A stretch of 64,000 nucleotides of DNA from Candidatus Latescibacterota bacterium (GCA_965204375.1 OZ241986.1:3072001-3136000); one strand, 5' to 3'; numbered from the stretch's first letter, positions 35,162-64,000 are shown. Numbers and translations are program-made. Notes: generated from the sequence alone by a model not told the origin.

Positions 35162-35166
35162 GCGGA

Positions 35167-35207
35167 AATGATTCCAAAAACTCCAATTGTGAACACAATC
35201 AAATTCC
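35167..35207 (-). pseudogene. 5' stub of a NUDIX gene (paralog of 38357-38800)
   Basis: 37/41 identical to 38765-38805; encodes (M)IVFTIGVFGII versus (M)TVFTIGVFGII. Confidence 0.85.
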
Positions 35208-35928: not shown

Positions 35929-35965
35929 AACCTACCTCCCTATTGTGATTTACAGACGTCGTCAT

Positions 35966-36709: not shown

Positions 36710-36772
36710 TTTGAAATGACAATACGATCTAATTCTTTTCTATTTTATAGCCGAGGCGCATTTCGCTTTCAA

Positions 36773-37395: not shown

Positions 37396-37483
37396 ATTTA
37401 AAGTTAACGAATATGTTACCAAAAACAAGCAAAATAACGCCAAATAGCCCTTGTTTCAATTCGTGTTAAACCTGTCCACCGCT

Positions 37484-38275: not shown

Positions 38276-38356
38276 AAATTTCGACCTCTCAAGTATTAAA
38301 AATGACGCTTAACATTTCTCCAGTTGCAAAACGCTCACAGGCGGTGTGTATATTTC

Positions 38357-38800: not shown

Positions 38801-38818
38801 ATCCCTTTTTTGATATTA

Positions 38819-39355: not shown

Positions 39356-39368
39356 TACGCCCCCCTGA

Positions 39369-40677: not shown

Positions 40678-40681
40678 AGAT

Positions 40682-41506
40682 TTATTTTGACCTATTCTCT
40701 TCCAACCAGCTAACCGTGAAATCCACGACATCGCGTTGTGGCATGAGTTGGCAACTTGCGAGACCAACCTTGCCCTGGCGCACAACTTTCTCCGCGCTCG
40801 ACCGCAAAAAATCCTCACCTATGCGATCAAAATCTGAACTATCGATGTCAACATCTTTAAAGGTAGCCCAAGCCCTTGAACCCGACGCAGAGATCGGGGC
40901 ACCCTCCTGCACAATGCGTTTGGTAGAAAAATTCGCTCGATATTCCGCGAGGTGCATAGACGTATTATTTTTATGCCCCACACCGAGAAGCAGGACAAAA
41001 CCGTGCAAATCGTAAATTCTCGCAAGCGGCGAATGCTCGCCCATGCCAAAAGACAGTGAATGATCATCCACGACATACGATGCTTGAGGTCCACATGCAC
41101 AAAATGAGTCCAGCGGATGTGAACTGCGGAGAACCCCTCTCTGCTTGCGAAATGTCTCCGCGATCATACCCATAGCACGAGTCGGCGTAATATCTGGATC
41201 ATAAGCTGGCATAGTCTCGCGTATCACCGGCCACCACGACTCGGGGACAGGAGGACTCTTCCAATTGCTCGGCTCACTCAGACCGGTTGAGTGCGCAGGC
41301 ATCACAAGCGTTCCAGTAGATCCCAGAACTTTCTGAAGCGCAATAACAACCGCCACGGCTCCTCCACACACCCACCCCATCGCGCTCAAAGACGAATGCA
41401 CCAACACGACCATCCCCGGTCTGACGCCAAGCGCGCGAAGATCTGTCTGCAACGATTCAATCGTAGCGGGCATTTTTGTTTTTTCAACAACCTTGCTTTC
41501 ACTCAT
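40682..41506 (-). CDS. AAC(3)/YokD-family N-acetyltransferase
   Basis: VLVHSSLS..GWV.GG, GTLVMP, RSSHP..S, SPLARIY and NTSMHLAE motifs. Confidence 0.9.
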   Translation of the reverse strand: MSESKVVEKTKMPATIESLQTDLRALGVRPGMVVLVHSSLSAMGWVCGGAVAVVIALQKVLGSTGTLVMPAHSTGLSEPSNWKSPPVPESWWPVIRETMPAYDPDITPTRAMGMIAETFRKQRGVLRSSHPLDSFCACGPQASYVVDDHSLSFGMGEHSPLARIYDLHGFVLLLGVGHKNNTSMHLAEYRANFSTKRIVQEGAPISASGSRAWATFKDVDIDSSDFDRIGEDFLRSSAEKVVRQGKVGLASCQLMPQRDVVDFTVSWLEENRSK

Positions 41507-41525
41507 TATTTCCCCAATGCGCCAC

Positions 41526-41870
41526 CTATTTCGCGGCAATCACAACCATCTCTACAAGTGTATCTCCCTCCAGATTGACCTCCACACAGGCGCGCTGGGG
41601 CCAATTGTCGGCACCTATCCAGGCGTCCCAAACCGCGTTCAGGATGGGTTTCTTTGACATATCTGTGATGTAGATCGTGACGGAAAGAAGACAAGACTTA
41701 TCGGTTCCAGCCTCGGCAAGATTCGCATCCAACTGTTCGAGCGCCTGTTGGGTCTGGCTCTTGAAATCTGCAGACACATCCGGTGCGGTGACAACCGTAT
41801 AGACGACGCCATTGTGTTCAACGGACTTGCTGCGACCAAATGCTTTTCCCGGATATCGTATGATAGTCAT
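41526..41870 (-). CDS. RidA/YjgF family protein (YoaB-like)
   Basis: QT.Q.L..LD..L..AG, N.VWD.W, PQRACV and VEM motifs. Confidence 0.9.
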   Translation of the reverse strand: MTIIRYPGKAFGRSKSVEHNGVVYTVVTAPDVSADFKSQTQQALEQLDANLAEAGTDKSCLLSVTIYITDMSKKPILNAVWDAWIGADNWPQRACVEVNLEGDTLVEMVVIAAK

Positions 41871-48196: not shown

Positions 48197-49177
48197 TCAA
48201 TGAGGATGGGATATTTCATGGAAAACGGGCAGCAAATAGGCGATAGCAACGCTCACGATCAGACCGAAAGTAATCTTCGCAAAGTCGGAAAGCACCAGAC
48301 GCGACACCTCCCGGCGGCTGCGGTGCTTTTCATTCCATGCAACGGCGATCTCGCGTCCAGCCAGCAACCCGACAAAAACCCAGGTCGTACTCATCGGGAG
48401 CTTGCTAACTTCCTTGAACAGGAACAGCACGATGCCATAGATCAGATCTACAAAAGTTGCCGAACGGATATCCGTGGTATTCGTCTTCGTCAACACCACT
48501 TTCTGGATCGCACCACCATGTGTATAAAAGATAATGGCTTGCATAGCCAGCATGGTTGCGATGGATGCTATAAACCATCCCACAGCTATATCTGGCGTAC
48601 GAGTGACCGGATCGCGCGGCAGGAAAACATAGATATTGGCCAGATCCTGTATCAGCCACTGACTCCAGAGAAAACCGGTTGAACACCACTGCGCCACCAC
48701 CCACCACGGGCTTTTCGGGCCATCCGTCTGCCTGAAACGGGACTCTAACCCCCGCGTAACCAGCCTGTAAATAAAGATAGCGGCCACGAATGCAGTCGCA
48801 TACCCCGCCAACGACTTGATCAGCATGCTCGGCAACGCCTTTGGTGCAAACACCGTCAGGGTCAGAAAAGTGGTACTAACCGGGATACCCCCGCGGGTCA
48901 GCAAAAGCAGTACAAAAGGCGGGATACAGTAAACCCAGTTAAAATGGTCTGGCACTGGAATTGCCGTAAGCCTACCATAGGAGACATCGCCATCATAGAC
49001 CACCCACCCATATACGAGAACCACGGTCAAGATGCCGCCGCCAAAGAGCCATAGCACCCACCAGGGACGGTGAGAATTAGAACTGAGAAACGTCCCCAAC
49101 GTCTGAATTGCGTCGTTGCCGACAATGGAATACGCACCGAGCAAAAAGCCAATGACCATTAAAACTTCCAAACTCAT
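48197..49177 (-). CDS. Multi-pass membrane protein, PiT (phosphate/sulfate permease)-like
   Basis: GNDAIQT and twin P(V/M)STT motifs; start ATG 49177 after GGAGG. Confidence 0.65.
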   Translation of the reverse strand: MSLEVLMVIGFLLGAYSIVGNDAIQTLGTFLSSNSHRPWWVLWLFGGGILTVVLVYGWVVYDGDVSYGRLTAIPVPDHFNWVYCIPPFVLLLLTRGGIPVSTTFLTLTVFAPKALPSMLIKSLAGYATAFVAAIFIYRLVTRGLESRFRQTDGPKSPWWVVAQWCSTGFLWSQWLIQDLANIYVFLPRDPVTRTPDIAVGWFIASIATMLAMQAIIFYTHGGAIQKVVLTKTNTTDIRSATFVDLIYGIVLFLFKEVSKLPMSTTWVFVGLLAGREIAVAWNEKHRSRREVSRLVLSDFAKITFGLIVSVAIAYLLPVFHEISHPH

Positions 49178-49249
49178 AAATCCCTCCCTGTAAGGTGTGT
49201 TAAATGTCCATTGGCAGACATTCAACGAACGGTTGCGATAATAAGGATA

Positions 49250-50719
49250 TCACGCAATCGAGAAATCAAATTTAACACGCGACTGATCGGATGCAGCAGT
49301 AAATGTGACGTTCGCCGTGGTATCTGTGATCTCAACGGCTCGCTGTGCGATATCCGTCTCAATCCCAATCTCGAGACCATCCAGACGCCACACATCCTCT
49401 TCAAACACAGCCACATTTGGTGAAAAAATCTCAAACACAAACTCCCGCGGATGTCCGGCCTCTGTCTGCTGTTCACCTCTAATCTCAGCCTCAATCGACA
49501 GACGCCCTGCTTCCGCCTTCGCCGCAACCTGTCCAATATGCCGCAGCGCGAGCCAGCCGGTCTCTCCATCTGACATGCGCCAGTGGACCGTCGCCGGATG
49601 GTATTGGAAACTGCGACCGGAATAACCACCCGAATCCTCTGCGCCGATCATGTAATGCGCATCCAGCCACGCGGTTGCAACGCGCTCTGGTTCAGCCGTG
49701 ATCCGTTTCTCGACACCTCGTGTACCTTCAAAAGCTGAGAAAGCAGCAGCGACCTCTGGCGGCGCATCAACCCCGAGAATCGCAAGACAAGGTCCATAAT
49801 TGAACTCGGCATTAATCTCCTCTCCCTTCGGAAACGGCGTCACCTCACGGCCAAACGCGAGCCAGATATGCAGACTCGTAAGCGCGGTATAATGCTTCAT
49901 ATCCATCCCATAGCTGCGCGAAAAAGGCCCGCAGAGATTGCCCAATCCCGCGTGGTAATAGCGCGCAATATCCCGCCAGAGTTCTTTCTCCATATACGCG
50001 CCCAATTCGTGGAGCGCACTATTCTCCAAATAGCGTCGCCAGAAACCGAGCGCGTAAAGATTCACACCATAGTACGTCGGTGAATTGTACTCCGCAAAAG
50101 CATTATTCTGCGCGAACAAACGATAGACCTCACCGCCAAATTCCTCACCGTATAAAACCATCTCATCATTTCCAATCCGCTTCCCAACCCACACGGACAG
50201 CGCGGCCTTCATCAAAGCGATATTCGAATACGTCGGCGGACAGCGATCCGGAGGCTCGCCCACAACAGCCATCTCCAAAGATCGGATCATGCGATCAACC
50301 AATCTCTGAGGCAACCGATCCCCGTACTCCTCGAGCGCGGTCGCAAACCCAAGCCCGATAAACTGACGCCAGTTCGGATCATAAGTACGCCACATCACGG
50401 CATCACCCTCTGAGGGATGTGGCTCGCCCACATAGCGATAAAAAGTACCGTGGTATGGCGTCCCCGGCTCGTCGAATTGATTATCGATAATCGCATCAAT
50501 CGTACGACACGCCCGCTCGACATCATCACCTTGATTGCGAAGCAGAAGCCCCACCGCGAACCAGACCGAATTCCGAACCATCAGCACCGCATCATTCTGG
50601 CGATGGGACCACAACAACGCGCTATCGGGATCCCAAAATCCCTCTGACCACTCGAGCGACTCAGTTGCGAGATGCCTCGCATAAGGCGACAGATCGGATA
50701 AAGAAATACCTTCAGACAT
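49250..50719 (-). CDS. Conserved hypothetical protein (possible helical-toroid plus beta-domain lyase/hydrolase)
   Basis: Long ORF with SD GGAG; conserved-looking motifs YDPNWRQF, YSNIALM, EYNSPTYYG and GPFSRSYGMDM. Confidence 0.65.
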   Translation of the reverse strand: MSEGISLSDLSPYARHLATESLEWSEGFWDPDSALLWSHRQNDAVLMVRNSVWFAVGLLLRNQGDDVERACRTIDAIIDNQFDEPGTPYHGTFYRYVGEPHPSEGDAVMWRTYDPNWRQFIGLGFATALEEYGDRLPQRLVDRMIRSLEMAVVGEPPDRCPPTYSNIALMKAALSVWVGKRIGNDEMVLYGEEFGGEVYRLFAQNNAFAEYNSPTYYGVNLYALGFWRRYLENSALHELGAYMEKELWRDIARYYHAGLGNLCGPFSRSYGMDMKHYTALTSLHIWLAFGREVTPFPKGEEINAEFNYGPCLAILGVDAPPEVAAAFSAFEGTRGVEKRITAEPERVATAWLDAHYMIGAEDSGGYSGRSFQYHPATVHWRMSDGETGWLALRHIGQVAAKAEAGRLSIEAEIRGEQQTEAGHPREFVFEIFSPNVAVFEEDVWRLDGLEIGIETDIAQRAVEITDTTANVTFTAASDQSRVKFDFSIA

Positions 50720-50806
50720 CGCGTGTCTCCATATTCCAATTCGCGTCCTTCATAATATACGCTTTCCCTGCAAATCCTTTGCCGAAAAATTCCGTTGAGA
50801 AATGGG

Positions 50807-51514
50807 CTACGACTCCGCCGCGTATCGCCGCAACACTTCGGCAATACGTGTGAAGCGCGCATCGTCGGGAAATTGTGCAAGCCATTCCAGCAACGTCTTA
50901 TTATCCTCTGTAAACTTCGCATCGGGATCGGCACCACTTTCCAAAAGCAACTCTACCGTATCGAGATGCCCGTGCCCGCCAGCGCAATACAACACCGTAT
51001 GCCCGCGATCATTTGCGACATTGACATCTGCGCCATGCGCGATCAACAAACGCACAATCTCCGTATCCCCATTGCGCGCCGCGTGATGCACAGGCTGATC
51101 GCCGCGACCATCTATCGCCGTCGCCAGATGGGGATGCCTGTTGAGCAACGCCAGCACCCGCGCAGCATCCGCGAGAAAAACCGACACCAGGAACTGCCGC
51201 GACAAATCATCAGTCGGACGAACATGGGAATCCAGCGCACCGTATTGAATAAGCAGTGAAACAATATTTTTATTATTCGGAACCTCGCCAGCGTAGTGCA
51301 ACACATAGCCATCATGAGCAGATAGGTCGGCCCCCGCCTCAATAAGCAGACGCACGACATCCTCACGTCGCCAAAGTCCCGCGTGAAAAATCGGCCGCCA
51401 TTCGTATTCATCATCTGCATCAACCGCAGCGGGATCGGCTGCAATCATTTCGCGCACAGCGTCGATATCCCCGCGCCTGCATGCATCGTGAATTGTTAGT
51501 GTATCACTCATCAT
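50807..51514 (-). CDS. Ankyrin repeat protein
   Basis: PIFHA..., PVHHAARNGD.EIVRLLI.HGADVN and LYCAGGHGHLDTVELLLESGADPD repeats. Confidence 0.92.
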   Translation of the reverse strand: MMSDTLTIHDACRRGDIDAVREMIAADPAAVDADDEYEWRPIFHAGLWRREDVVRLLIEAGADLSAHDGYVLHYAGEVPNNKNIVSLLIQYGALDSHVRPTDDLSRQFLVSVFLADAARVLALLNRHPHLATAIDGRGDQPVHHAARNGDTEIVRLLIAHGADVNVANDRGHTVLYCAGGHGHLDTVELLLESGADPDAKFTEDNKTLLEWLAQFPDDARFTRIAEVLRRYAAES

Positions 51515-52244: not shown

Positions 52245-53651
52245 ATGCACGCATCAGAACTTTCTGGACATGAGGCAAAGAACCTTATGACAACAGATCA
52301 AATCAAAGCGCGTCTTGAAAGCGACAAAATTCAAAAAATTAAACTCGCTGGCTTCGACATCGACGGCGTTATGCGCGGCAAATACATATCGCTCGACAAG
52401 TTCTTTTCTGCCATCGAAAAAGGTTTGGGCTTCTGTGATGTGACATTTGGTTGGGATATGATCGACCAACTCTACGAACAACCCACCGTCACGGGCTGGC
52501 ATACCGGATATCCGGACCTCCTCGCCAAAATTGACCTCAGTACATACCGCGTAATACCCTGGGAGCAGAACACTGCATTGTTCTTACTCGACTTTTACGA
52601 AAACGAAAATCAGCCACTTGCGGTATCCCCGCGCCAACTCCTCCAAACAATCGTTCGCAAAGCGAATGACATGGGATTCCAGCCATACATGTCCGCGGAA
52701 TACGAATACTTCATCTTCCGGGAAACGCCCCATTCTCTGGAAGACAAAGGGTTTGAGAACATGACGCCACTCTCACCCGGTTGGTTTGGCTACAGTGTAT
52801 TGCGGGCATCTGCGGCTTCAGAATTTGTTCACGCAATAATCGATGGAATGGGAGCGTATGACGTTGAACTGGAAGGAATACACACCGAAACCGGACCCGG
52901 CGTATATGAAACTGCGATTCGTTACGACACAGCATGTAACGCCGCAGACAAAGCCGCGCTATTCAAAACTGGCGTAAAAGAAATACTATCCAGACACGGA
53001 CTCGTCGCAACCTTTATGGCGAGGTGGAGTCCAGACTACCCCGGTTGCAGCGGGCACCTGCATCAGAGCCTGTGGAATTTAGAGGGAGACACAAACCTAT
53101 TTGCCGATGAATCAGATCCGCAGGGCATATCTCAAATCATGAAACACTATATCGCAGGACAAATCGCTACAATGCCCCACATGATGGCACTGATATGCCC
53201 GACCATCAACGCCTACAAGCGGACTGTCCCCGGAGCCTGGGCACCGACCAACGCCTCCTGGGGAATTGAAAATCGAACCGCATCTCTCCGCGCCATTCCC
53301 GGTACATCCCCTAAATCCACACGCACCGAATATCGACTGGCTGGCTCTGACGCCAATCCCCATATCTCAATGGCCGCCAGCCTCGCCGCCGGACTATACG
53401 GCATAGAGCATCAACTCGACCCCGGTGAACCATTCACGGGAAATGCCTACGAAGCTCCCGAAGGGCAATTCGAGCCTTTGCCAAAATCACTTGAAGAAGC
53501 GACAGACCGACTAAAAAATAGCGAAATTACCCGAACCTATCTCGGCGACGCATTTGTCGATCACTTCGCAATCACCCGCGAACACGAAATTGCGGAATAT
53601 CGCCGCGCCATAACGGATTGGGAACTCAAGCGATACTTTGAGATCATTTGA
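52245..53651 (+). CDS. Glutamine synthetase family protein (likely gamma-glutamyl-amine ligase type)
   Basis: DIDGVMRGK, EYEY, HTETGPGVYE, GHLHQSL, NAYKR, WGIENR and EYR..GSDANP motifs. Start may be 52287. Confidence 0.9.
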   Translation: MHASELSGHEAKNLMTTDQIKARLESDKIQKIKLAGFDIDGVMRGKYISLDKFFSAIEKGLGFCDVTFGWDMIDQLYEQPTVTGWHTGYPDLLAKIDLSTYRVIPWEQNTALFLLDFYENENQPLAVSPRQLLQTIVRKANDMGFQPYMSAEYEYFIFRETPHSLEDKGFENMTPLSPGWFGYSVLRASAASEFVHAIIDGMGAYDVELEGIHTETGPGVYETAIRYDTACNAADKAALFKTGVKEILSRHGLVATFMARWSPDYPGCSGHLHQSLWNLEGDTNLFADESDPQGISQIMKHYIAGQIATMPHMMALICPTINAYKRTVPGAWAPTNASWGIENRTASLRAIPGTSPKSTRTEYRLAGSDANPHISMAASLAAGLYGIEHQLDPGEPFTGNAYEAPEGQFEPLPKSLEEATDRLKNSEITRTYLGDAFVDHFAITREHEIAEYRRAITDWELKRYFEII

Positions 53652-55146
53652 ACGCCTCCACAATATAATTCCCTACCCGCAGGGCATTTGCCGCAATCGT
53701 CAAACTCGGATTGACGCCGCCAGACGTGGGAAACACGCTCCCATCCGTCACAAACAAATTGTCAATCCCCCGAAATTGGCAATTTTCATCCAGCACACTC
53801 GCCTCTTCATCATCGCCCATACGCACCGACCCCACGCCATGAGAAAAAGTGTCAATGCGATACGTATGAAAAAAAAACGCGCCCGACGCGCGCAAAATCC
53901 CTTTGGCCTTCTCCACCAGATAATCGCGACGTTCGCAATCTCGCGCTGTGTACTGATGTATGACCTGTGCGCGGCTGATGCCATAAACATCCTTCTCATC
54001 TGCCAGCACCACGCGATTCTCAAACTGCGGCTCATCCTCTGCAACACACAACAGATTTTGCAAAAAACCAGCAACCATTGCCGTAAGATTTTTAAGTCCA
54101 AAAGGCGCGTGGTGCTTCAGAGCTATAGGCGACGGCGTGTAAATATCCTGAATCACCCCAACGGCACGGCCGTCCTGCCCTCGGCAATCCCCGTAAAAAT
54201 CAGAAAAACACACCTGCTTGTGAAACACCTGTTCCGGATTTGTGCGAAACGGAAACACCCCCGCCACAACGGCATTGCAATGCCGCATCAGAAAACGCCC
54301 AATCAAATCGCCCTGCGGAAACGAATGCAACTCTGACCGCAACAAAATAGCCGGACTTTGCAGCGCCCCCGCAGCGACAACAGCAACAGGCGCGGACACT
54401 TCAAACGCCTTTTTAGTACGCCGATCCACACACGCCACAGCGCGCACGCGCCCCCGTTTGCAAATAACACGCGCTACCTGTACACCCGTCAAAATCTCAG
54501 CCCCTGCATCTTGTGCCAACTTGAGCAACGTCATCGTCAGATCATTTTTAGCCTCAATTTGGCACGGAAACCCATCGCAGGTCAAACATCGAATACACAC
54601 GGTTCGCGCCCGATCCGAAAAATTGATCGCCAATGGCATGCGAAAAGGCCGATATCCCAATGCACATCCAGCATCCCAAATGCGTTGTGCAGGGCGGGAC
54701 AGTTCAATAGGCGGAAACAAATAGTCGCCCGTCCGCGGCGGCTCGCACGGATCGACACCCACTTCTCCATGCACTTCCAGTAAGCGTTCAACACAATCGT
54801 AATGCGGAGATAGGTCCCCATACAAAATCGGCCACGCGACCAGATCTTCTTCGCGCAGCCTCAGCGATGCCCCACCGTAAAACACGGACATCCCACCAAC
54901 CACTTCATTCTCGACCACATCTGAAAAATCGCGGTCCTCATATTGCCTGACGCGAAGCGGCGAGGGACCCTGATAGCGTTTCTCTACCAGTATAGAACGA
55001 GGATCCCAATCCTCTGCATCGCGTCTTGCCCAATCGCCCCGTTCCAACAGTAAAACCTTCATACCCGCCACAGCCAACACATAAGCGCAGGCACTACCTC
55101 CAAATCCCGTACCGATAATAACAGCGTCGTAATCGTTAAAATTCAT
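53644..55146 (-). CDS. GMC-family FAD oxidoreductase
   Basis: GTGFGG, VGG.S..YG, C..C..C..C, SH..G..RMG and DGSVFPTSGGVNPSLTI.A.A motifs. Confidence 0.92.
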   Translation of the reverse strand: MNFNDYDAVIIGTGFGGSACAYVLAVAGMKVLLLERGDWARRDAEDWDPRSILVEKRYQGPSPLRVRQYEDRDFSDVVENEVVGGMSVFYGGASLRLREEDLVAWPILYGDLSPHYDCVERLLEVHGEVGVDPCEPPRTGDYLFPPIELSRPAQRIWDAGCALGYRPFRMPLAINFSDRARTVCIRCLTCDGFPCQIEAKNDLTMTLLKLAQDAGAEILTGVQVARVICKRGRVRAVACVDRRTKKAFEVSAPVAVVAAGALQSPAILLRSELHSFPQGDLIGRFLMRHCNAVVAGVFPFRTNPEQVFHKQVCFSDFYGDCRGQDGRAVGVIQDIYTPSPIALKHHAPFGLKNLTAMVAGFLQNLLCVAEDEPQFENRVVLADEKDVYGISRAQVIHQYTARDCERRDYLVEKAKGILRASGAFFFHTYRIDTFSHGVGSVRMGDDEEASVLDENCQFRGIDNLFVTDGSVFPTSGGVNPSLTIAANALRVGNYIVEAFK

Positions 55147-55937
55147 TAAACCTCAAACACATACAAAACAATTAACCCAACAATAATGGCGAGTGCCCCG
55201 TAGTGAAATTTTTCTCGGGCATCAATACACCTCTGAATCCGCGGCAAATCCGGGCGGAATTTACCCGACATCGTACGCTGAATATAAGTCTTGTAATACT
55301 CCACAACAAAACGCTCCAACCCACCATTCATATAAACCAGAAATCCCAACGATATGGGATGCAGGGGATCATTGAGAAAATAGAATAACGGCGAACAAAC
55401 CGCCAGCACCAGGCCCGACCGCTGAAACTTCAAAATTTTAAACCCCTCAAACGGCGCATCTTTATACGCCCCGCCGAGCGACACCAGCAGACCCGTAATA
55501 TAAGCTGTCAGGAGAAAGACCCAGAAACTCATCACAGGAGCGGGAATCAACAACACAGCAAAAACGCCCAGCACCAGTACAGTTCCCACAGCATAGCGCA
55601 ACAAATCGCTCGCCACATACTGACCGAAAAACGTAATGCGAGAGGGCACAAAATACTTATCCTGATCTTCCGTGCGAAAAAAACCCTTGTAAAGCTCGGC
55701 CAAAAACCGTTCCAACCCCATAATCAGAAAAAAAATCTGAACCCATCCCAGCACGGAAGAACTCGCCCTAAAAATCGGGACAAAATACAACACTGCAAAA
55801 ATTACAATGTGAAAATAAATACTCCTCGGAAACGTCCTGGGCTTAAAATCCTCATAGGGCGAATCCTTAAACGCCCCCCACAAAGACGTATAAAGTCCCG
55901 ACACAATACTCACACCCAGGCCAATATAGAAATTCAT
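55146..55937 (-). CDS. Uncharacterised membrane protein with internal duplication
   Basis: Two halves: SLWGAFKDSPYEDFK..F.RS...GLERFLAELYK and SLGGAYKDAPFEGFK..F.RS...GLERFVVEYYK. Coupled to the GMC gene by TAATG. Confidence 0.8.
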   Translation of the reverse strand: MNFYIGLGVSIVSGLYTSLWGAFKDSPYEDFKPRTFPRSIYFHIVIFAVLYFVPIFRASSSVLGWVQIFFLIMGLERFLAELYKGFFRTEDQDKYFVPSRITFFGQYVASDLLRYAVGTVLVLGVFAVLLIPAPVMSFWVFLLTAYITGLLVSLGGAYKDAPFEGFKILKFQRSGLVLAVCSPLFYFLNDPLHPISLGFLVYMNGGLERFVVEYYKTYIQRTMSGKFRPDLPRIQRCIDAREKFHYGALAIIVGLIVLYVFEV

Positions 55938-55939
55938 AG

Positions 55940-58387
55940 TTATAATTCCGATTCGTCTGATTTCTTCACATCACCTTTTTCTCGCCGCAACCGCCCCCCT
56001 TCAAGCACTTCCAAAATAGCGGGCAGCACCAGCACAGCAGCCACAAAACAAGTCAACAAACCAATCAACGCCAGGCGTCCAATTGAATTGAGCCCGGGAT
56101 GCGTCGCCATCGTCAATCCAAAAAAGCCCACCATCGTCGTCAGCATAGAAATGAACATCGCCCCACCAGTACTCCTGATCACCACCGGCATCGACCCGGG
56201 ACCCTCCTCTCGATATCGGTGATAGAGATGCACCCCATTATCAATTCCCATACCAATAATAGTGGGCAACGCGACCATATTGTAGAAATTGAGCTTTAAA
56301 TCCTGCAAATACAGCGAACCACACATCCACACAGTACCACAGGCAAGGGGAAAAATCACCAGCAAAGCAGAGCGCAAACTGCGAAAATCAGTCAGCACAA
56401 TGAGAAACACGACAATCACCGTCAACGAGATCGCACGCGGACTATCGCGCAGCATCAGGCGCAACATATCGGCAAAAATAATATTGGCACTCGACGAATA
56501 AAACACCTTGCCCGACGCGGTCTGAATCTCGTGTGAATCTTCGGCAAATGCAATGGCATTTTTTCCATCGCGCAACTGCACACTCGGCAAAATTTGTGCA
56601 AAATACGCCTGACTGCCATCAATCGTCTCAAATTTTCTCAATAAATTTTCGGGCAAATCCTCAACCGAAAGCCTTTTGACATCCAACAAATCGCGCAGAG
56701 AATCGAGCTTTGCCTTTTGTGTGCCCCTGATCAACTTCGCACCCTCGCCATTGGCCAGCGCGCGAATCTCTCCAATAATATCCAGCTTCTCGTCCTGACC
56801 GCGCAACTCTGTCCAGAGCGTCTTAACTTTGTCAATCGTCGGCGTTGAATCATCTTTAGCTATCTTCTTTTCCAATGCATCCACAATCTCATCGAGTTCC
56901 GTTTTGCTATCCGCCAGCACAATGCCATAAGACTGCGATTCGCTGCCGTATTTCGGAATCGTCGCCATCTTTTGTTTTACCTTGACCGATGCGGGCAAAT
57001 TAGAGCGCAAATTGGTAAAATCGTATTCAAAATCTATATCGGGCAAATGGATGCCCAGATATATCGCGAGGATCAGCGCGCCGGCAATCACCAACTTTGG
57101 ATATGGAAAATGCCCCCGGCTGCCGCCCCAATTGTGCCCCCACACGTGCCGCATGCGAATCCACATAAACCTTTGATCCGCCAGCACCAGCACAGCGGGC
57201 AATACAGTCGTCATAGAGACCAGCGACATCAAAATGCCCGTACCCACAATAAAACCAAATTCCGTAAACCCCCTGAAATCTGTCAGCGTCAGAGAAAAGA
57301 ACGCAATAGACGTTGTTATCGCCGCCGTCAAAATAGCCTGTCCAGTCTGGCTCAGCATCGTCTCTATGGACATTCGCACATCCGTCTTGTCCATGCGAAC
57401 TTCGAGATATCGCGCAAACATGTGAATACCAAAATCGATCCCCAGCCCAAACAAAATCACAAACAAAAAAGCCGTCATAGTATTCAAATTGCCGATAACC
57501 CAGTACGTAATCGCAAATGCCCAGATCAAACCCATCGCCAGCGGAATAGCCACAAAAAAAGCCGCCAATGGCTGGCGGAAATAAAACGTCAAAAGCGCGA
57601 CAATACCCACGACACCAAATATCAACGTCGAGCGGACATCGCTTAAAATGGTATCGTATTCGTCAATTTTGTTCTTAAACGGTCCTCCGTATTCAATCAA
57701 CATCTGCGGGTGATACGCGCGCGGATTCACCTTCTTGACAGCCTGCTGGATCACCCGTTGCATATCCTTGGCAAAACCGATATTGCTCACCGTACCCGCT
57801 GCCATCGCCTCCAATGCCAGGATGGTACGGTCGGGATTGGTATAATACGTCTCGTCTCCATTATCTGCCGTGCGATACTTAGCCTCAATATCCGAAAAAT
57901 CGAGCACGGCTTCTTCTTCATCAAGAGAAATATACAACGGCGACAGCTTCAACTTTTCCTGGATGATATAATCATCTATGCGCGTGAGAACCTCATCCAA
58001 ATCGTCCGTTTCCATAAACAACAGCGCGTTCTTGCGATAAAATTCTGCATCTCGCTTGTAATCGACAAAGTTGATGTACGTCCCGTATTTCTCATCCTGT
58101 AACTCATGTGCCAGATCCTCGGTAAAACGCCTGTTTGCCTCAAAATCGGGACTCTGTACCAAAACCACCAGACTGCCCACACCACCCACGCGCTGTTTGA
58201 TCTCATTGAGCGTCTTCACACTCTGATAATTTTCCGGAATCAGAGCAACGAGATCCGTCTCGAGTTTGCGCCCGAGCTTGTACACAAAAATACTGCAAAA
58301 AGCCGTCAACAAAATCGACACCACAAGAATACCTCTGTAGTGTCGATAAGTCCACCCCGCCAAAAAACGAAGCCCCACTTCAACCAA
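55940..58387 (-). CDS. MMPL/RND-family transporter (HpnN-like)
   Basis: Two TM bundles with GLGIDFGIH and GMGIDNGVH motifs and two periplasmic loops. Confidence 0.9.
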   Translation of the reverse strand: MVEVGLRFLAGWTYRHYRGILVVSILLTAFCSIFVYKLGRKLETDLVALIPENYQSVKTLNEIKQRVGGVGSLVVLVQSPDFEANRRFTEDLAHELQDEKYGTYINFVDYKRDAEFYRKNALLFMETDDLDEVLTRIDDYIIQEKLKLSPLYISLDEEEAVLDFSDIEAKYRTADNGDETYYTNPDRTILALEAMAAGTVSNIGFAKDMQRVIQQAVKKVNPRAYHPQMLIEYGGPFKNKIDEYDTILSDVRSTLIFGVVGIVALLTFYFRQPLAAFFVAIPLAMGLIWAFAITYWVIGNLNTMTAFLFVILFGLGIDFGIHMFARYLEVRMDKTDVRMSIETMLSQTGQAILTAAITTSIAFFSLTLTDFRGFTEFGFIVGTGILMSLVSMTTVLPAVLVLADQRFMWIRMRHVWGHNWGGSRGHFPYPKLVIAGALILAIYLGIHLPDIDFEYDFTNLRSNLPASVKVKQKMATIPKYGSESQSYGIVLADSKTELDEIVDALEKKIAKDDSTPTIDKVKTLWTELRGQDEKLDIIGEIRALANGEGAKLIRGTQKAKLDSLRDLLDVKRLSVEDLPENLLRKFETIDGSQAYFAQILPSVQLRDGKNAIAFAEDSHEIQTASGKVFYSSSANIIFADMLRLMLRDSPRAISLTVIVVFLIVLTDFRSLRSALLVIFPLACGTVWMCGSLYLQDLKLNFYNMVALPTIIGMGIDNGVHLYHRYREEGPGSMPVVIRSTGGAMFISMLTTMVGFFGLTMATHPGLNSIGRLALIGLLTCFVAAVLVLPAILEVLEGGRLRREKGDVKKSDESEL

Positions 58388-58401
58388 TGGGTGCCACCTT
58401 T

Positions 58402-58998
58402 CTAATCCGACGTATCTTCACTTAGTTTTTCTTTTAATTTATCCATCAAGCCTGCAAAAGAAGACTTGCGAATCTCCCGGCGAAACTGTGACCGGTTGCT
58501 GCGTGCAACACTCAACTCATCAATAACCATATCGTAAATCAACCACTTGTCATCAACGAGATGCAATTTATAGTCAATCGTACTCGACTCGCGCCTGTAA
58601 TACACCACCGTCTTGACAATAGCCTGTGTGCTATCAACCTCGACACCCGTATAGTCGATCTTCTCCGCTTTGGTATATAACGCGGGATCGGCGTAATTTT
58701 TCTCGATCAACTGTCTGTTCACAGCCACAAAATCAGCCCGTTCTTCTTCTGTTCGCGCTGTCCAATCTCGGCCGAGGGACTCCCGGCTAAATGTTTCAAA
58801 ATCGAACAACTCACCGACAATAGCTTTAAGCGCGGCACGCTCTTCAGCCGTATCACCACCGGTTTCTGAACGCACAATATCCTGAATCGCTCGATCTCGG
58901 CTCTTCACCATATCGAGCAACGCATCGCCCTGATCAGACGCGCTCGCCACGCCCATCAAAACGAGCAACAGAAATGCATGCCTGAGCAATGAAATCAT
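58402..58998 (-). CDS. MlaC/Ttg2D (HpnM-like) periplasmic lipid-binding protein
   Basis: Signal peptide; FDF..F....LG..W, IDYKL and W.IYD..I...S....R.QF motifs. Confidence 0.88.
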   Translation of the reverse strand: MISLLRHAFLLLVLMGVASASDQGDALLDMVKSRDRAIQDIVRSETGGDTAEERAALKAIVGELFDFETFSRESLGRDWTARTEEERADFVAVNRQLIEKNYADPALYTKAEKIDYTGVEVDSTQAIVKTVVYYRRESSTIDYKLHLVDDKWLIYDMVIDELSVARSNRSQFRREIRKSSFAGLMDKLKEKLSEDTSD

Positions 58999-59049
58999 AA
59001 CATATTGCCTATTATATCAACAACTTGTTTTTAGACAGAATCTCCGTCA

Positions 59050-59078
59050 ATTTTAATATTTTTCTCTCCCAAAGTCAA
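59050..59078 (-). promoter_or_regulatory. sigma-70 promoter for the MlaC-MMPL-membrane protein-GMC unit
   Basis: Minus strand TTGACT-17 bp-TAAAAT; an IHF-consensus TATCAACAACTTG lies at 59015-59027. Confidence 0.6.
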
Positions 59079-59255
59079 GACAGCGACAGTCTGTCTTAAA
59101 AAAAGAGAACTTGAGTATTAACAAAAAGAAAGAATGCCCTATTTTGCAACAAAATTCTCTGATTATCTTTAAAAAAATACTGCGTACAAACAAACTTCTG
59201 TTGAAGCCATACCCCCCCCCAACAGAAGTTTATCTCAGTTCAGACAAAAATTGTA

Positions 59256-60710
59256 TCAGTCTGCTTTCTCTCCCAACTTCCCCTCATCCACATTCAAAGC
59301 ACCGCGCGCGCGCAGCATTTGTCCGCCAAAGCCAAAAATACCCGCCGTCAACAGGGCAGAACCAATCACGAGGAACCAGTACATACCCTCAATACTATTC
59401 GCGACAGCCAGTGTGCAAAAGAAAGCGGCAAAAAAATCGCGGCGACTCACAAATTTGAGCGACATACAAAAACGGTGAAACCACCCGCGTTCACTCTCGG
59501 GAACATCGCTCGAAAACGCCATATTAAAACTCACAATACTGCCGGACCCCACCAGTTTCATATACAGAAAAATCAGCAACACCCCCAACACATCCAGAAA
59601 AACCATCACACCGCCCAGCAGGGGATAAAATGCCTCATCCGTATATGCATACATCCCGGCGAGCACCGCGATAAAAAACACGAGATAGGACATATTATCC
59701 GCCAGCGTATCGACCCACTCGCCCAGGCGAGAACCCATAAATTTTAATTTGGCAATCTCACCATCGCACCCATCTATAATAGACGCAAACTGAAACAACA
59801 GCCCGCCCAGAGCCAGATGCAAATAACTCGCACTCCCCTTAAAAACCAGCCATGCCGACAGAAAACTCAACAACATCGTCGCAATCGACAACTGGTTTGG
59901 CGTAACAGGCGTATGCACGAGCACACGAGAAATGCGCGTGGAAATTTTGCGATTAAAATAGCGCGAAACAAAACCATCGGTCGGCTTGCCGAGCCTGCGA
60001 AACAGCTCCTGCTCTGCGTGAACATGCGCCTCGGGCGTATCCACATCGAGCCAAAACGCGCCATCGATATCCGCAGTCCGCATACTGCCTTTCTCCGCCA
60101 AAACGCGAATCCCCCCCGACAATGACCCCTCGCCCTCTGCAACAGACTGCTCGAGCGCGCCAAACAAAAACGGACTGCACAGAAAAATCCCCGTATCTAC
60201 CGCATTGAAATCGGCCAACTCTTTTCCAATTTTGACCACGCGACGGTTCTGTGTCATCACCTTCGTGGCATCTTCCATATCAAAAATGCCATCGATATCT
60301 GTATCGACACATAAAATGGCTTCATCCCGACCAACCGGCATACGACGCAATTTGACCAGTATCTCGGGATCAAACAGATGATCGGACATCAAAAGAATAA
60401 ACGGCTCATCGACATATTCTCTGGCACTCAATACCGACACACCATTGCCGCGCGCCCATTCCTTATTTTGAACCCAATCAATCGCCACATCCGAAAGCTG
60501 TGGATCATCGGCAAGCGCGTGCATAATCTCTTGGCACCGATACCCAACCACAACCACAAACTCCGAAATGCCCGCGCGCATAGCCGACAAAATCGTGCGC
60601 TTGAGCAATGGCACGCCGGCCAGGGGCACGAGAGGCTTGGGCAAATCCGCCCCATAACCTCTCAGCCGACTGCCCATACCAGCGGCAATAATTACAACTT
60701 TATTCACCAT
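59256..60710 (-). CDS. Bifunctional NTP-transferase / CDP-alcohol phosphotransferase (IPCT/DIPPS-like)
   Basis: IIAAGMGSRL..PKPL, GNG.S, MSDH, DATKV and W.DVDT; then DG.VSR..NR.IS, TPN and DGCDGEIAK....S..G...D...D. Start ATG 60710. Confidence 0.9.
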   Translation of the reverse strand: MVNKVVIIAAGMGSRLRGYGADLPKPLVPLAGVPLLKRTILSAMRAGISEFVVVVGYRCQEIMHALADDPQLSDVAIDWVQNKEWARGNGVSVLSAREYVDEPFILLMSDHLFDPEILVKLRRMPVGRDEAILCVDTDIDGIFDMEDATKVMTQNRRVVKIGKELADFNAVDTGIFLCSPFLFGALEQSVAEGEGSLSGGIRVLAEKGSMRTADIDGAFWLDVDTPEAHVHAEQELFRRLGKPTDGFVSRYFNRKISTRISRVLVHTPVTPNQLSIATMLLSFLSAWLVFKGSASYLHLALGGLLFQFASIIDGCDGEIAKLKFMGSRLGEWVDTLADNMSYLVFFIAVLAGMYAYTDEAFYPLLGGVMVFLDVLGVLLIFLYMKLVGSGSIVSFNMAFSSDVPESERGWFHRFCMSLKFVSRRDFFAAFFCTLAVANSIEGMYWFLVIGSALLTAGIFGFGGQMLRARGALNVDEGKLGEKAD

Positions 60711-60744
60711 AACTTCTATAACCTTTCGCAATATCCCGAGCGAT

Positions 60745-62061
60745 TTACAAAAGACTGCGCCCAACAGCCCGTTGTAATCTCGCCCAGGATCGGTTAAAAT
60801 TAAACACTGCTTCATAATATTTGGCGCGAATAATGCCGTACTCTTTTGCAGCATCGATCATATCCGATGCATCTTCAAGCCCGGCATTAAACCCATCGCG
60901 AACCGATATAAACCACCGGCGGGTCGCCCGCCGCGCCGTGCTGGCAGCCGCCATATTTTTTTGTGCCTCAATCAACTCGCGGTAAATCTTCTCAATTTCA
61001 ATTGCCACGCCCTTCTCGGCCAGTTGCTTTTGATACAACAACTTCTGATATTCCAAACTCGCTTTCCGCGCCTTCGCCGACGTAAGCCCAAACGACAGCG
61101 ACTGTCGAACACCTATCACCGCCCCTGCCTGTAAAATATTGAAATCATCTCTGGCAAAAGGACTTGTCTGATCGTCGCGGTTCGGTGCGTAACCATACTT
61201 AAATTGACCCGCAATAAATATCTGGGGATACTGCTCGCCTTTTGCCACCTGCATTAGAGATTCACGCACCTGCGCGGCAGCCTGTAACTGCTGCATATCT
61301 TCGCGCTCTCCCGCGCGTTTGAGATAAAACTCAAGCGGCTCAATCTCCACATCAACCGGTGTTAAAGGACCAGCAAGAGTCAGCGAATCTCTTTCACTCA
61401 ATCCCAGAAGCATGCGCAGGGCAGACTCGGCAAGCGCTTTTGTTTTCGCCGCCTCGTGTACTTTTTCGCGCACATCAAAGGCAAACCGATCAATACGGCC
61501 CAGATCGGCATACGTAAAATCGCCTTCCTCTGCCTCCAGTTTCTCCACCACAAAATCGCGCGCCGTTTGAAAATCACTTTGCGCTTCCAATGCCAGTGCC
61601 CACAAATCCTGCGTCAGTTGCAACCCAAAATACACCTCGGCAACCTGAAGCTCCAGATCGCCCCGCGCTTTGCGCAGCCCCGCCTGCTGAGCCGTCACGC
61701 CTGCCATAGCCGCTGCTTTGGCTCCGGACAAATGACCGAATGTGAACAGAGGTTGCACAACCGTGGCCTCTGTACGCGTAAAAATACTCAAATGACTCAG
61801 CATGGTATTGCCAGTGAGCGCGTCACCGCGTGCTTCGGGCGAGGGACCAATAACAGACCGCAATTCAAACTGCGGCAAAAAGCGGATGGCATTGGCCTGA
61901 TCTAATTGCGCCCGCGCAATATCGACATCAACCGCTGCCGCACGCACGCCGGGATGCACGCGCATCGCCTGTGCAATACTCGCGGACAAATCATAAGTTT
62001 CGGCGCGGAGAGAATGCACACAGATAAAAATCCCCAAATAGGACACACACAGCTTTAACAT
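60745..62061 (-). CDS. TolC-family outer membrane protein
   Basis: Signal peptide; QPLFTFG, EVYFG, YPQIF and C-terminal coiled coils. Start ATG 62061 or TTG 62097. Confidence 0.85.
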   Translation of the reverse strand: MLKLCVSYLGIFICVHSLRAETYDLSASIAQAMRVHPGVRAAAVDVDIARAQLDQANAIRFLPQFELRSVIGPSPEARGDALTGNTMLSHLSIFTRTEATVVQPLFTFGHLSGAKAAAMAGVTAQQAGLRKARGDLELQVAEVYFGLQLTQDLWALALEAQSDFQTARDFVVEKLEAEEGDFTYADLGRIDRFAFDVREKVHEAAKTKALAESALRMLLGLSERDSLTLAGPLTPVDVEIEPLEFYLKRAGEREDMQQLQAAAQVRESLMQVAKGEQYPQIFIAGQFKYGYAPNRDDQTSPFARDDFNILQAGAVIGVRQSLSFGLTSAKARKASLEYQKLLYQKQLAEKGVAIEIEKIYRELIEAQKNMAAASTARRATRRWFISVRDGFNAGLEDASDMIDAAKEYGIIRAKYYEAVFNFNRSWARLQRAVGRSLL

Positions 62062-62211
62062 GTGTGAAAAAAAACCACATCTGTTGCAATTTAACAACAC
62101 AACCCCCTGAACTCCGGCGAAAAACTCAAAAATAAAAAAATCTATATCTATATTAAACAAATATTTAAAAAAAGACCATCCAAACAGGCACAAAATATCT
62201 TTTCCTATATA

Positions 62212-62227
62212 AGCGAAATCCGTGCCA
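62212..62227 (-). promoter_or_regulatory. Putative sigma-54 promoter
   Basis: Minus strand TGGCACGGATTTCGCT: GG and GC are at the exact -24/-12 spacing, with one mismatch to consensus. Confidence 0.6.
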
Positions 62228-62240
62228 TCGTAAAATATAT

Positions 62241-62266
62241 AAAAAAACCGGACAAAAGTCCGGGTT
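62241..62266 (-). terminator. Intrinsic terminator
   Basis: Minus strand CCGGAC-TTTT-GTCCGG followed by T7. Confidence 0.75.
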
Positions 62267-62310
62267 AGCTATACTAACGTTTTAATCCGCGAGTAGTTCC
62301 CTCCACATAT

Positions 62311-63258
62311 TCACCGCCGCACCGCCATCAAAACAAATCCAAAAGACACCCAGAAAATTTTCCGGATGCGCCGGATCAATGCAACGCCCAATCCCAATTC
62401 TGGCGTCAACCCCAACAATTGAAAAAGAAACACATGCCCGCTCTCAAAAACGCCGACACCAGATGGAATAAAGAAAAATGCCGTGTTTATAATCAACGAC
62501 AAAGACGTGAGCAAAAAAGCGGTCAAAAAAGATTGTGGCTGCCCCAACAGACTGAGAATCGCATACACTTCAAAAGTTCCCAAAACCCAACTCAGCATGT
62601 GCAACGCCATACACAGCCAGAACCCCAGGCGGTTCTGCCGGTAAAATGCCGCAATCGTCCGATCAACTTCTTCAAACTTTTCGCGCCTCGACTCCAAAAA
62701 AGAGAGACGCAATTTCTTCAAAATATCCAGCAACCATACAGAAGCCCGTTGGCGCTGAGACACATAAGCCGCCACAATTCCAACCGTACCCAACACCAGG
62801 GCAGCCCCCAATCCAATCTGCACCTCTACTGAAAGCGGAAACATGCCCACGGCCAACCCCGTGCCAATCAGCGCGAAGACCAGGCCACTCACCAATTCAA
62901 CCGTCTTATTGATCACCAGAGAAGGTACGCCCTGCGTCACAGAAACCTGGTCGCGCAACATATACGCTTTGGCCACCTCACCGCCCACATGAGAAGCCGG
63001 TGTGACATTGCCAACAGCTTCTCCCGACAACTTTATGCAAAAAAGTGACCAAAAACTCGGACGGTCGCCATCAAAACACATCGCCCAGGCCCACGTATTG
63101 CTCACATGCCAGCCCAATGCAATGAGCAAAACAGGCACATAGCCCCACCCCATCTGCCGCACTTGCGTCCAGGCGGCGATAATCCCAACCTCGTAAATCA
63201 ACACCGCCAGCAGCGTTAACCCAATGCCCCACAACATCACCTTGCGCGCAGTTTTCAT
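62311..63258 (-). CDS. Lysylphosphatidylglycerol-synthase TM / flippase-like domain protein (HpnL/UPF0104-like)
   Basis: GEAVG.VTP...GGEVAK, IPSGVGVFE and ALIRR.R motifs; multi-TM. Confidence 0.85.
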   Translation of the reverse strand: MKTARKVMLWGIGLTLLAVLIYEVGIIAAWTQVRQMGWGYVPVLLIALGWHVSNTWAWAMCFDGDRPSFWSLFCIKLSGEAVGNVTPASHVGGEVAKAYMLRDQVSVTQGVPSLVINKTVELVSGLVFALIGTGLAVGMFPLSVEVQIGLGAALVLGTVGIVAAYVSQRQRASVWLLDILKKLRLSFLESRREKFEEVDRTIAAFYRQNRLGFWLCMALHMLSWVLGTFEVYAILSLLGQPQSFLTAFLLTSLSLIINTAFFFIPSGVGVFESGHVFLFQLLGLTPELGLGVALIRRIRKIFWVSFGFVLMAVRR

Positions 63259-63330: not shown

Positions 63331-64000
63331 TCAATTAACCCGCATAATCACGTGATAGCCCAGAGGGGTTTTGACAACCCCACTGACTTCATTGGGTTTG
63401 AGCTTCATCACTGCGGCTTCAAAATCCGGGTGCAAATCGCCCTTAGAGAAAAACCCCGTACTTCCGCCATTTTCTTTTGAAGGATCAATAGAATAACTCC
63501 TCGCCAAAGCGGCAAAATCTTCTCCGGCTTTGAGCTTGTTCAAAATTTCCTGAGCTTCGGGTTCCGTCTTCACCAGAATATGCCGCACCCGCATCTTGCC
63601 CGCCTGAATCGACTTAATAATATCCAGATTGCCCTGTGCATCGCGCAGCGTACTGGCATCCTTGCTTTCGGCCATTGCCGTTTCATACGCTCTTCGCGCC
63701 TTATCAAAATCTCCCCGAGCCGAATAAATAAACCCCAGATTGTTGTGAACTTCGGCATCTTTGGGATCAATTGCCAATGCCTTCTCGTAAATCACACCTG
63801 CAGAATCGACCTTCTCCTCACCCAAATACAGCAATGCCAACCGCTTATAGGGCGCAATCCACTCGGGAGCGCGCGAAATACAGGTCAACAGTTCGGCCTT
63901 GGCCTGTGCAACATCGCCCTTAGCCACATAGACTTCTGCCAGCCGAAATCGCACCAGATTGCCATCGGGCGCACGTTCCAAAATGCCCAGCATCTCGCCA
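63331..64000 (-). CDS. TPR-repeat protein with C-terminal PpiC/parvulin peptidyl-prolyl isomerase (5' end outside window)
   Basis: TPR helices (HNNLGFIY...GDF..A...Y); RHILVK, F..LA..YS.D.S..NGG.G.F and T.LGYH motifs. Frame stays open to the window end. Confidence 0.9.
   Translation of the reverse strand, partial: GEMLGILERAPDGNLVRFRLAEVYVAKGDVAQAKAELLTCISRAPEWIAPYKRLALLYLGEEKVDSAGVIYEKALAIDPKDAEVHNNLGFIYSARGDFDKARRAYETAMAESKDASTLRDAQGNLDIIKSIQAGKMRVRHILVKTEPEAQEILNKLKAGEDFAALARSYSIDPSKENGGSTGFFSKGDLHPDFEAAVMKLKPNEVSGVVKTPLGYHVIMRVN

Follow-up and report, generated by a model that had tools for sequence, protein, structure and literature searches.

A conserved gene cluster of Latescibacterota joining a CDP-inositol-type enzyme to MMPL, MlaC-like and TolC-like genes: a candidate envelope-lipid module

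What is an enzyme resembling the makers of di-myo-inositol phosphate (DIP) doing among genes of lipid transport? The question is raised by seven genes, all on the minus strand at 53644-63258 of a 64,000-nucleotide stretch from a Candidatus Latescibacterota bacterium (GCA_965204375.1 OZ241986.1:3072001-3136000), which we call the window. The window belongs to a closed genome of 6.34 Mb that is 96% complete, and the records of its relatives name Latescibacterota. In the direction of transcription, the genes encode an HpnL-like, MprF-flippase-like membrane protein (LPG_synthase_TM, 315 residues; 62311..63258), a TolC-like outer membrane factor (OEP; open reading frame (ORF) 60745..62193), a fusion of NTP_transf_3 and CDP-OH_P_transf domains (IPCT-like plus DIPPS/BEPIS-like, 484 residues; 59256..60710), an MlaC-family periplasmic lipid carrier (198 residues; 58402..58998), an MMPL/HAE3-type resistance-nodulation-division (RND) transporter (815 residues; 55940..58387), an integral membrane protein of no known family (263 residues; 55146..55937), and a flavin adenine dinucleotide (FAD)-dependent GMC oxidoreductase (GMC_oxred_N plus GMC_oxred_C, 500 residues; 53644..55146). 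An earlier note, made without database searches, had listed these co-oriented genes and named their families, all of which our ORF calls and the Pfam and NCBIfam matches confirm, and had suggested that they make and export an inositol-phospho-type lipid. That interpretation is partly supported. On the three points by which the note proposed to judge it, an 80-locus search shows the genes conserved together in Latescibacterota and Gemmatimonadota, and the fusion, TolC, and MlaC also in KSB1 and Cytophagia; a quick tree places the fusion in a separate clade from IMPase-adjacent, DIP-operon-like fusions; and the MMPL, MlaC, and flippase-like proteins score far below the cut-offs for HpnN, HpnM, and HpnL in a genome in which two models find no hopanoid cyclase. 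Our best explanation, to which we assign a probability of about 0.5, is that the cluster is an envelope-lipid module in which a lipid built from cytidine diphosphate (CDP)-inositol is made, tailored, flipped, and exported to the outer membrane.

How far do these genes keep company elsewhere? Relatives of the fusion were scanned with one genome per species, and the best 80 of 559 confirmed loci were kept and searched with the window proteins and with partner proteins from distant loci, high-scoring segment pairs covering <40% of the query being dropped. Neighbourhoods were counted in the 50 loci where the fusion is flanked by at least 8 kb on each side (full-flank loci). A TolC-like gene lies beside the fusion in 28 of these, MlaC in 27, MlaC together with TolC in 27, MMPL in 23, and all three in 21, while all five partners (TolC, MlaC, MMPL, the 263-residue gene, and GMC) are found in 18; a flippase-type gene, either HpnL-like or Wzx-type, is present in 28. 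Among the 33 full-flank loci whose fusion is <55% identical to that of the window, MlaC and TolC accompany it in 11, MMPL in addition in five, and all five partners in three; a flippase is found in 19, and no partner in 12.

The order of the genes differs between phyla. In Latescibacterota it is TolC, fusion, MlaC, MMPL, 263-residue gene, and GMC, often followed by an IolG-like dehydrogenase, and it is kept down to 58% fusion identity, with an HpnL-like or a GT4 glycosyltransferase gene upstream. In Gemmatimonadota (loci L040, L071, and L078) it is GMC, IolG-like, 263-residue gene, DUF3047, TolC, MlaC, MMPL, fusion, and Wzx. KSB1, a Cytophagia metagenome-assembled genome (MAG), and other phyla retain the fusion with TolC and MlaC, with or without MMPL, and carry in addition a radical SAM/SPASM protein, a methyltransferase, another CDP-alcohol transferase of greater length, and DUF3047, the last being sometimes fused to a second MlaC domain. 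No close counterpart of these phyla's DUF3047, second CDP-alcohol transferase, Wzx flippase, or cluster-type radical SAM protein was found in the window's genome. IolG-like genes accompany the cluster in 14 of the 50 full-flank loci, and GT4 glycosyltransferases replace or accompany cluster genes in relatives. The same content in shuffled order between phyla is a classic sign of functional linkage, and because the gene set is conserved across phyla, the adjacency seen in the window is more than chance. The flippase, originally counted as a member of the set, is present here, but its position is filled in relatives by a GT4 glycosyltransferase or a Wzx-type flippase; the HpnL-like gene is replaceable and probably transcribed apart from the rest.

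The best solved relative of the fusion is the IPCT/DIPPS of A. fulgidus (PDB 4MND; E 2.5e-54), which matches residues 3-371 with both domains collinear. The CDP-alcohol motif reads D313xxD316G317xxA320K...G330xxxD334xxxD338, in which 14 diverse sequences all share D313, D316, G317, A320, G330, D334, and D338. An inositol-3-phosphate synthase is encoded in the window's genome (PF01658, 129 bits; TIGR03450, 534 bits, E 1e-160; the PF07994 profile missed this gene, which the other two detect), in 47 of 49 other fusion-bearing genomes, the two without it being assemblies of 1.9 and 3.6 Mb, and in 143 of 151 sampled Latescibacterota genomes. A tblastn search with the genome's own synthase matched in only one of the 80 loci, because other phyla have a longer type of the enzyme; Pfam adds locus L044. 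In two distant loci, the synthase adjoins the fusion. L044, from a Methylomirabilales MAG (~1363-12404), carries a HAD hydrolase, a class III aminotransferase, an IolG-like dehydrogenase, a second CDP-alcohol transferase, the synthase, the fusion, and an HpnL-like gene, a set with an inositol or aminocyclitol look, and L043, from Brocadiales, has the order synthase, IMPase-family gene, and fusion. Such adjacency weighs more for inositol than co-occurrence within a genome. Judging from the synthase in the genome, the 4MND match, and the L043 and L044 neighbourhoods, the idea that inositol is the polyol gains support, and inositol is the most probable head group. The HpnL-like gene of L044 scores 177 bits, near the cut-off of 196, and the L044 set lies ~9.4 kb from a squalene-hopene cyclase gene; this arrangement may bear on HpnL function.

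Is the product a lipid or a soluble compound? In a quick maximum-likelihood tree of 81 fusions, a branch with SH-aLRT support of 94 splits a clade of 12 from a clade of 69. The smaller clade holds three IMPase-adjacent, osmolyte-operon-like fusions (Zixibacteria and Brocadiales), while the larger holds all 40 fusions with transport genes nearby, a distribution that shows clustering rather than independent events since kin share labels. This split, together with the flippase-type, MMPL, and MlaC neighbours, argues for a lipid. Elsewhere in the same genome (G000 C1:6239341-6241148, plus strand), a stand-alone CDP-alcohol phosphotransferase of 215 residues has directly behind it another HpnL-like paralogue (44% identity), so that the cluster's pairing of a transferase with a flippase-like protein recurs there.

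The transport proteins resemble known ones without belonging to the named subfamilies. The HpnL-like protein matches PF03706 (105.9 bits) and passes the flippase-like domain model TIGR00374 (68.9 bits against a cut-off of 43.2), but it is below the cut-off for HpnL (TIGR03476, 152.1 against 195.65); it presumably flips a lipid head group. The MMPL protein (PF03176, 139.1 bits) is below both HpnN models (TIGR03480, 325.2 against 751.85; NF052374, 208.9 against 1100), and its nearest solved structure is HpnN (5KHN, E 8.6e-33), so by its matches it is HpnN-like but not HpnN. The MlaC-like protein (PF05494, 110.2 bits against a cut-off of 26) has an N-terminal hydrophobic leader and reaches 61.8 bits against the HpnM model TIGR03481, for which the cut-off is 160.1. 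These three scores and the lack of a cyclase place the cluster outside the Hpn equivalogs. A complex of MMPL with mature MlaC, which had been put forward as a check of the export route, was predicted with an ipSAE of 0.36 (runs 0.37, 0.35, and 0.36), compared with 0.00 for the best of three controls; at least 90% of contacts are shared between the runs, and the partner pLDDT is at least 76. Of 157 solved complexes, 116 reach the ipSAE mark, as do two of 215 mismatched pairs, and values at or below 0.60 include only 18 of the 157 solved complexes but both of the passing mismatches; the prediction thus weakly supports docking of MlaC on MMPL.

The TolC-like protein has two OEP repeats (PF02321, 104.7 bits) and is below the cut-off of TIGR01844 (83.3 against 225.15 bits). 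With the TolC-like proteins in other phyla's clusters it shares 29-33% identity across 86-98% of its length, and BLAST finds no significant match for it in the window's canonical OEP (E 1.3) or elsewhere in the genome. From these comparisons, it represents a dedicated subfamily seen only with these clusters. The canonical OEP belongs to a tripartite set at 18214-25171 on the plus strand, which consists of an HlyD-family adaptor, an AcrB-family pump that is unusually long (1358 residues), and the OEP.

The GMC protein passes both of its Pfam models (PF00732, 59.3 bits; PF05199, 76.6 bits) and has no signal peptide by sequence. Its nearest solved relatives are the catalytic subunit of FAD glucose dehydrogenase (E 4.7e-26), the large subunit of fructose dehydrogenase, pyranose oxidases, and an aminoglycoside oxidase. 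It therefore resembles the sugar-ring dehydrogenases, and these relatives oxidise ring hydroxyls of sugars, not lipid chains. The four cysteines of a CxxCxxCxxxxC motif (C184, C187, C190, and C195) are invariant in nine of nine homologues from Latescibacterota and Gemmatimonadota, which suggests an iron-sulphur (Fe-S) cluster in this subfamily; related sugar dehydrogenases presumably carry one at a comparable cysteine site. The earlier note had the GMC enzyme further oxidising the exported lipid. A protein of this type that is cytoplasmic by sequence may instead act before export rather than after it. The IolG-like dehydrogenase that often follows GMC in relatives has a counterpart, 57% identical, at G000 C1:755903-756859; within a few genes of it lie a polyprenyl synthase and a transaldolase, the neighbours of the IolG-like gene in locus L013. 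The ancestral cluster was therefore broken by a rearrangement directly behind GMC.

The 263-residue protein has no Pfam or NCBIfam match. It is internally duplicated and has 59 invariant columns, many of them charged, and 375 homologues were found, among the 120 listed of which there is neither a Pfam domain nor an informative name. The protein has eight helices, and its AlphaFold2 (AF2) model is confident (pLDDT 84.5, pTM 0.85). Nothing clear was found in the PDB with Foldseek (best E 0.16); the best VIA-align hit (Z 5.0, root-mean-square deviation 4.9 over 178 residues) is the SID1 membrane domain, with helical bundles of unrelated proteins scoring equally, and the ESM Atlas returned unnamed clusters only. 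A lycopene-cyclase-like or CREST-type enzyme was considered for this protein and found no support from the fold searches.

How might these parts work together? From the sequences and their context, we infer a lipid product, a direction of transport, the TolC-like protein as the end of the route, and the following biochemical steps. The genome's inositol-3-phosphate synthase would supply inositol phosphate, from which the N-terminal domain of the fusion would form CDP-inositol. At the cytoplasmic face, the membrane-embedded C-terminal domain would then attach phospho-inositol to a membrane lipid at its hydroxyl, by analogy with the CDP-inositol-dependent ether-lipid synthase of Rhodothermus. 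The cytoplasmic GMC protein would probably alter the cyclitol ring or ready the acceptor, together with the IolG-like dehydrogenase encoded elsewhere in the genome and the 263-residue protein. The lipid would be flipped by the HpnL/MprF-flippase-like protein, or by a Wzx-type flippase in other phyla. The proton-driven MMPL protein would extract it from the inner membrane and hand it to the periplasmic MlaC-like carrier, and the dedicated TolC-like protein would receive it at the place taken by MlaA, or by HpnS in the Hpn model, with no membrane fusion protein. More tentatively, and with appreciably less confidence than we have in an envelope-lipid module as such, we raise a wider proposal: that the FCB (Fibrobacterota-Chlorobiota-Bacteroidota) group, as Latescibacterota, Gemmatimonadota, KSB1, and some Bacteroidota, possesses an undescribed lipid route from RND/MMPL through an MlaC-like carrier to a dedicated TolC-like protein, lacking both membrane fusion protein and MlaA, which might deliver a cyclitol-phosphate lipid tailored by the Fe-S-type GMC, IolG-like, and eight-helix proteins.

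Each known system shares some parts with this cluster and departs from it in others. The IPCT/DIPPS type (A. fulgidus 4MND, NF041135) has the same order of two domains and the same motif Asp and Gly residues, and inositol-3-phosphate synthase is at hand in the genome; the fusion here, unlike that type, has Lys for Arg in the motif, scores below the family cut-off, belongs to another clade than the IMPase-adjacent fusions, and has lipid-transport neighbours in place of an IMPase-type one. In passages on Rhodothermus IPCT and BEPIS that cite Jorge et al. 2015, CDP-inositol is described as the donor of a lipid head group (PMC4587543, PMC9246714), and for Bacteroidetes a putative alternative pathway to inositol lipids is reported whose gene cluster has an LPG-synthase-like gene nearby (PMC9246714). 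Compared by description rather than by sequence, R. marinus IPCT and BEPIS and the Bacteroides/Prevotella cluster agree with ours in that a head group is activated and moved to a lipid alcohol and that an LPG-synthase-like gene is near; as those passages give them, however, their genes are separate and lie beside inositol-3-phosphate synthase, the Bacteroidetes cluster adds a HAD hydrolase, and no RND, MlaC, or TolC genes are named in them (PMC4587543, PMC9246714). The model of hopanoid trafficking by HpnN-HpnM-(HpnS/HpnT), with HpnL (preprint, PMC12324291), has RND/MMPL, MlaC-like, and HpnL-like proteins encoded together as here, with HpnN the nearest structure to our MMPL; the present cluster differs in its sub-threshold Hpn scores, in having no cyclase in the genome and no MlaA/HpnS-like gene, in its linked CDP-alcohol enzyme, and in a TolC-like protein at the outer-membrane position. 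With the Mla system (MlaFEDB-MlaC-MlaA), it shares an MlaC-family carrier with a signal peptide, but here MlaC stands beside MMPL and not beside an ATP-binding cassette (ABC)/MCE complex, MlaE and MlaD being far off, and no MlaA was found in the 96% complete genome. The tripartite RND pumps of the AcrAB-TolC type also combine an inner-membrane protein of the RND superfamily with an outer-membrane protein of the OEP family; the cluster, in contrast to these and to the set at 18214-25171, whose OEP has no significant BLAST similarity to the TolC-like protein, has an MlaC-like protein in place of a membrane fusion protein.

Several points weigh against the envelope-lipid reading. A membrane fusion protein is normally required for TolC proteins to work, and Pfam finds no HlyD-family or membrane fusion protein gene in 53644-64887. 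The cluster MlaC is the only PF05494 match of the genome, and an MlaE-MlaD pair lies ~575 kb from the cluster (MlaD at C1:3706071, MlaE at C1:3707172), so that this MlaC could serve the distant ABC system instead or as well; the remark of the earlier note that MlaFEDB is missing thus holds for the cluster and not for MlaE and MlaD in the genome. The neighbourhood counts lean to near kin because there are at least 559 relatives, of which the 80 loci represent the closest, and none of 14 partner families occurs in 12 of the 50 full-flank loci, mostly Myxococcota. The gap between fusion and MlaC is a hot spot of insertion in close relatives. It contains a GT4 glycosyltransferase in L002, DDE transposases in L005 and L008, and a WD40 protein of 1386 residues in L009. 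In L012, CARDB-domain giants replace the part from MlaC to GMC, and none of the downstream genes is left within 10 kb. Nearly all genomes of the phylum encode inositol-3-phosphate synthase, so its presence does not discriminate among them. The fusion reaches 256.3 bits against NF041135, the IPCT/DIPPS equivalog and its best family, for which the cut-off is 580. Its motif has Lys where the consensus, as printed in the relevant passage of PMC9246714 (DxxDGxxAR...GxxxDxxxD), has Arg. Finally, a complete hpnC-hpnD-hpnE operon is present at G000 C1:3898651-3901813 on the minus strand; since all three genes pass their NCBIfam equivalog cut-offs, the genome probably makes squalene. Given that no squalene-hopene cyclase was found, it would be a squalene producer lacking any known cyclase.

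This operon leads to the possibility that MMPL, the MlaC-like carrier, and the HpnL-like protein move a squalene-derived or polyprenyl lipid in an Hpn-like manner, with the fusion either modifying that lipid or being just a neighbour. HpnN is the nearest structure to MMPL, and HpnN, HpnM, and HpnL are the best NCBIfam matches of the three genes; 34 of the 49 genomes with a fusion have HpnD-like genes (E<=1e-20), and a polyprenyl synthase follows the cluster in L013. We nevertheless consider an isoprenoid cargo unlikely. No squalene-hopene cyclase was found by TIGR01507 or PF13243 in this genome, the enzyme is absent from 44 of 49 related fusion-bearing genomes, and the three Hpn scores are far below their cut-offs. 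In the five genomes that do have the cyclase, the fusion adjoins an HpnL-like and/or a small radical SAM gene, and L044 is close to a cyclase gene as described above, but these loci are without MlaC, MMPL, and TolC. Moreover, two Gemmatimonadota genomes with the full cluster (G027 and G046) have no HpnD-like match, indicating that squalene is not a general partner of the cluster. HpnCDE had also been considered as a companion of the cluster and was set aside, as it does not track the cluster across phyla. An HpnD above the cut-off in a genome without the cyclase is the pattern of most related Latescibacterota genomes.

The remaining alternatives differ in which of the neighbours they regard as meaningful. 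In one, MlaC is simply the housekeeping carrier of the distant MlaFED, and the TolC-fusion and MlaC-MMPL-263-residue-GMC units are independent of each other, for which the sole MlaC of the genome, the MlaE and MlaD genes elsewhere, the lack of MlaA, the promoter-like and terminator-like sites that divide the cluster, and the transposase, GT4, and WD40 insertions in relatives can be adduced; we find this about as unlikely as an isoprenoid cargo, because the same families accompany the fusion in differing orders in several phyla, the TolC-like subfamily is confined to these clusters, and the clusters of other phyla include MlaC-DUF3047 fusions. A polyol-phosphate glycoconjugate resembling teichoic acid or capsule, either linked to a carrier or secreted, which the Wzx-type or HpnL-like protein would flip and the TolC-like protein release, would account for several genes of related clusters, namely flippases of the Wzx type (Polysacc_synt), GT4 glycosyltransferases, methyltransferases, and a second CDP-alcohol transferase. 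It is rather improbable, however, given that MlaC and MMPL are lipid-handling families and that no polymerase, chain-length regulator, or Wza-type exporter is seen in the cluster or the annotated loci. Lowest in our estimation, and very improbable, stands a soluble inositol phosphodiester such as the osmolyte DIP, with the transport genes unrelated to it or exporting it. No named family and no solved structure is closer than IPCT/DIPPS, and the fusions of L043, L054, and L055 have genes for IMPase, MscS, or inositol-3-phosphate synthase as neighbours, as is the case in osmolyte operons; yet these three fall in the separate clade and their matches end at ~73-76% of the query, whereas the window cluster has no IMPase-family gene, its fusion is below the equivalog cut-off, and the partners of that fusion are of lipid-handling families.

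The layout of the locus gives some indication of how the cluster is expressed. From the coordinates, the TolC-like stop codon is 34 bp from the start of the fusion, MlaC and MMPL are 14 bp apart, MMPL and the 263-residue gene 2 bp, and the latter overlaps GMC by one base, which bears out the tight packing first described. The fusion is taken to start at 60710 and not at 60854 as in the longest ORF, because homologues (484-491 residues) span the 484-residue form fully. The TolC-like ORF is probably over-long, with the true start at Met45, near 62061 (60745..62061): this position begins a signal-peptide-like sequence, and the stretch upstream of it contains stops in several close relatives. Consensus scans alone give, on the minus strand, a terminator-like hairpin with a T-run just past the stop codon of the HpnL-like gene (62248..62263) and a promoter-like site (TTGACT-17-TAAAAT; 59050..59078) in the 257-bp gap between fusion and MlaC (58999-59255). 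These two sites point to two or three transcription units, rather than one operon, as the probable organisation. Upstream by 72 bp of the HpnL-like gene, a co-oriented eighth gene encodes a TPR plus PpiC-type peptidyl-prolyl isomerase (PPIase) protein identified by Pfam; its 3' part lies at 63331..64000 on the minus strand, and the whole gene (518 residues) extends past the window end to 64887. Its product is possibly a periplasmic chaperone. This gene precedes the cluster in 19 of the 80 related loci, all with a fusion identity of at least 55%, and the link is confined to Latescibacterota. Downstream of GMC is a convergent gene of the glutamine-synthetase family.

Other features of the window may be recorded here. 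On the minus strand at 48197-51514, just downstream of the glutamine-synthetase-like gene, are an ankyrin-repeat gene (50807-51514), an ORF of 489 residues with no family (49250-50719), and an ORF of 342 residues with a weak PHO4 match (48197-49225). Three genes with domains of aminoglycoside-modifying enzymes lie near one another on the minus strand at 34133-41539: an APH phosphotransferase (34133-35161), an AadA_C protein (39832-40818), and an aminoglycoside 3-N-acetyltransferase (310 bits; 40682-41539). At 8149-10124, also on the minus strand, GHMP-kinase and NTP_transferase genes stand side by side and have the look of a sugar-1-phosphate activation pair, unrelated to the cluster.

Each part of the cluster has a known relative, and the combination was not found described: full-text searches, whose coverage leaves out most subscription journals, did not return it. 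The only related mention in a paper on Latescibacterota genomics is of myo-inositol synthesis, and for DUF3047 the same literature gave one unrelated survey only. Lipid supply to the outer membrane in diderms outside Proteobacteria is largely unexplained, and the cluster bears on this problem as well as on the role of the widespread mesophilic relatives of the "thermophile" IPCT/DIPPS enzyme, for it ties CDP-inositol chemistry to an RND pump with an MlaC-like carrier and to an adaptor-less TolC-like protein. If our explanation is true, it would give a function to a TolC subfamily and to the conserved family of the 263-residue membrane protein, it would provide a second, non-ABC partner for carriers of the MlaC type, and it would explain why inositol-3-phosphate synthase is near-universal in Latescibacterota.

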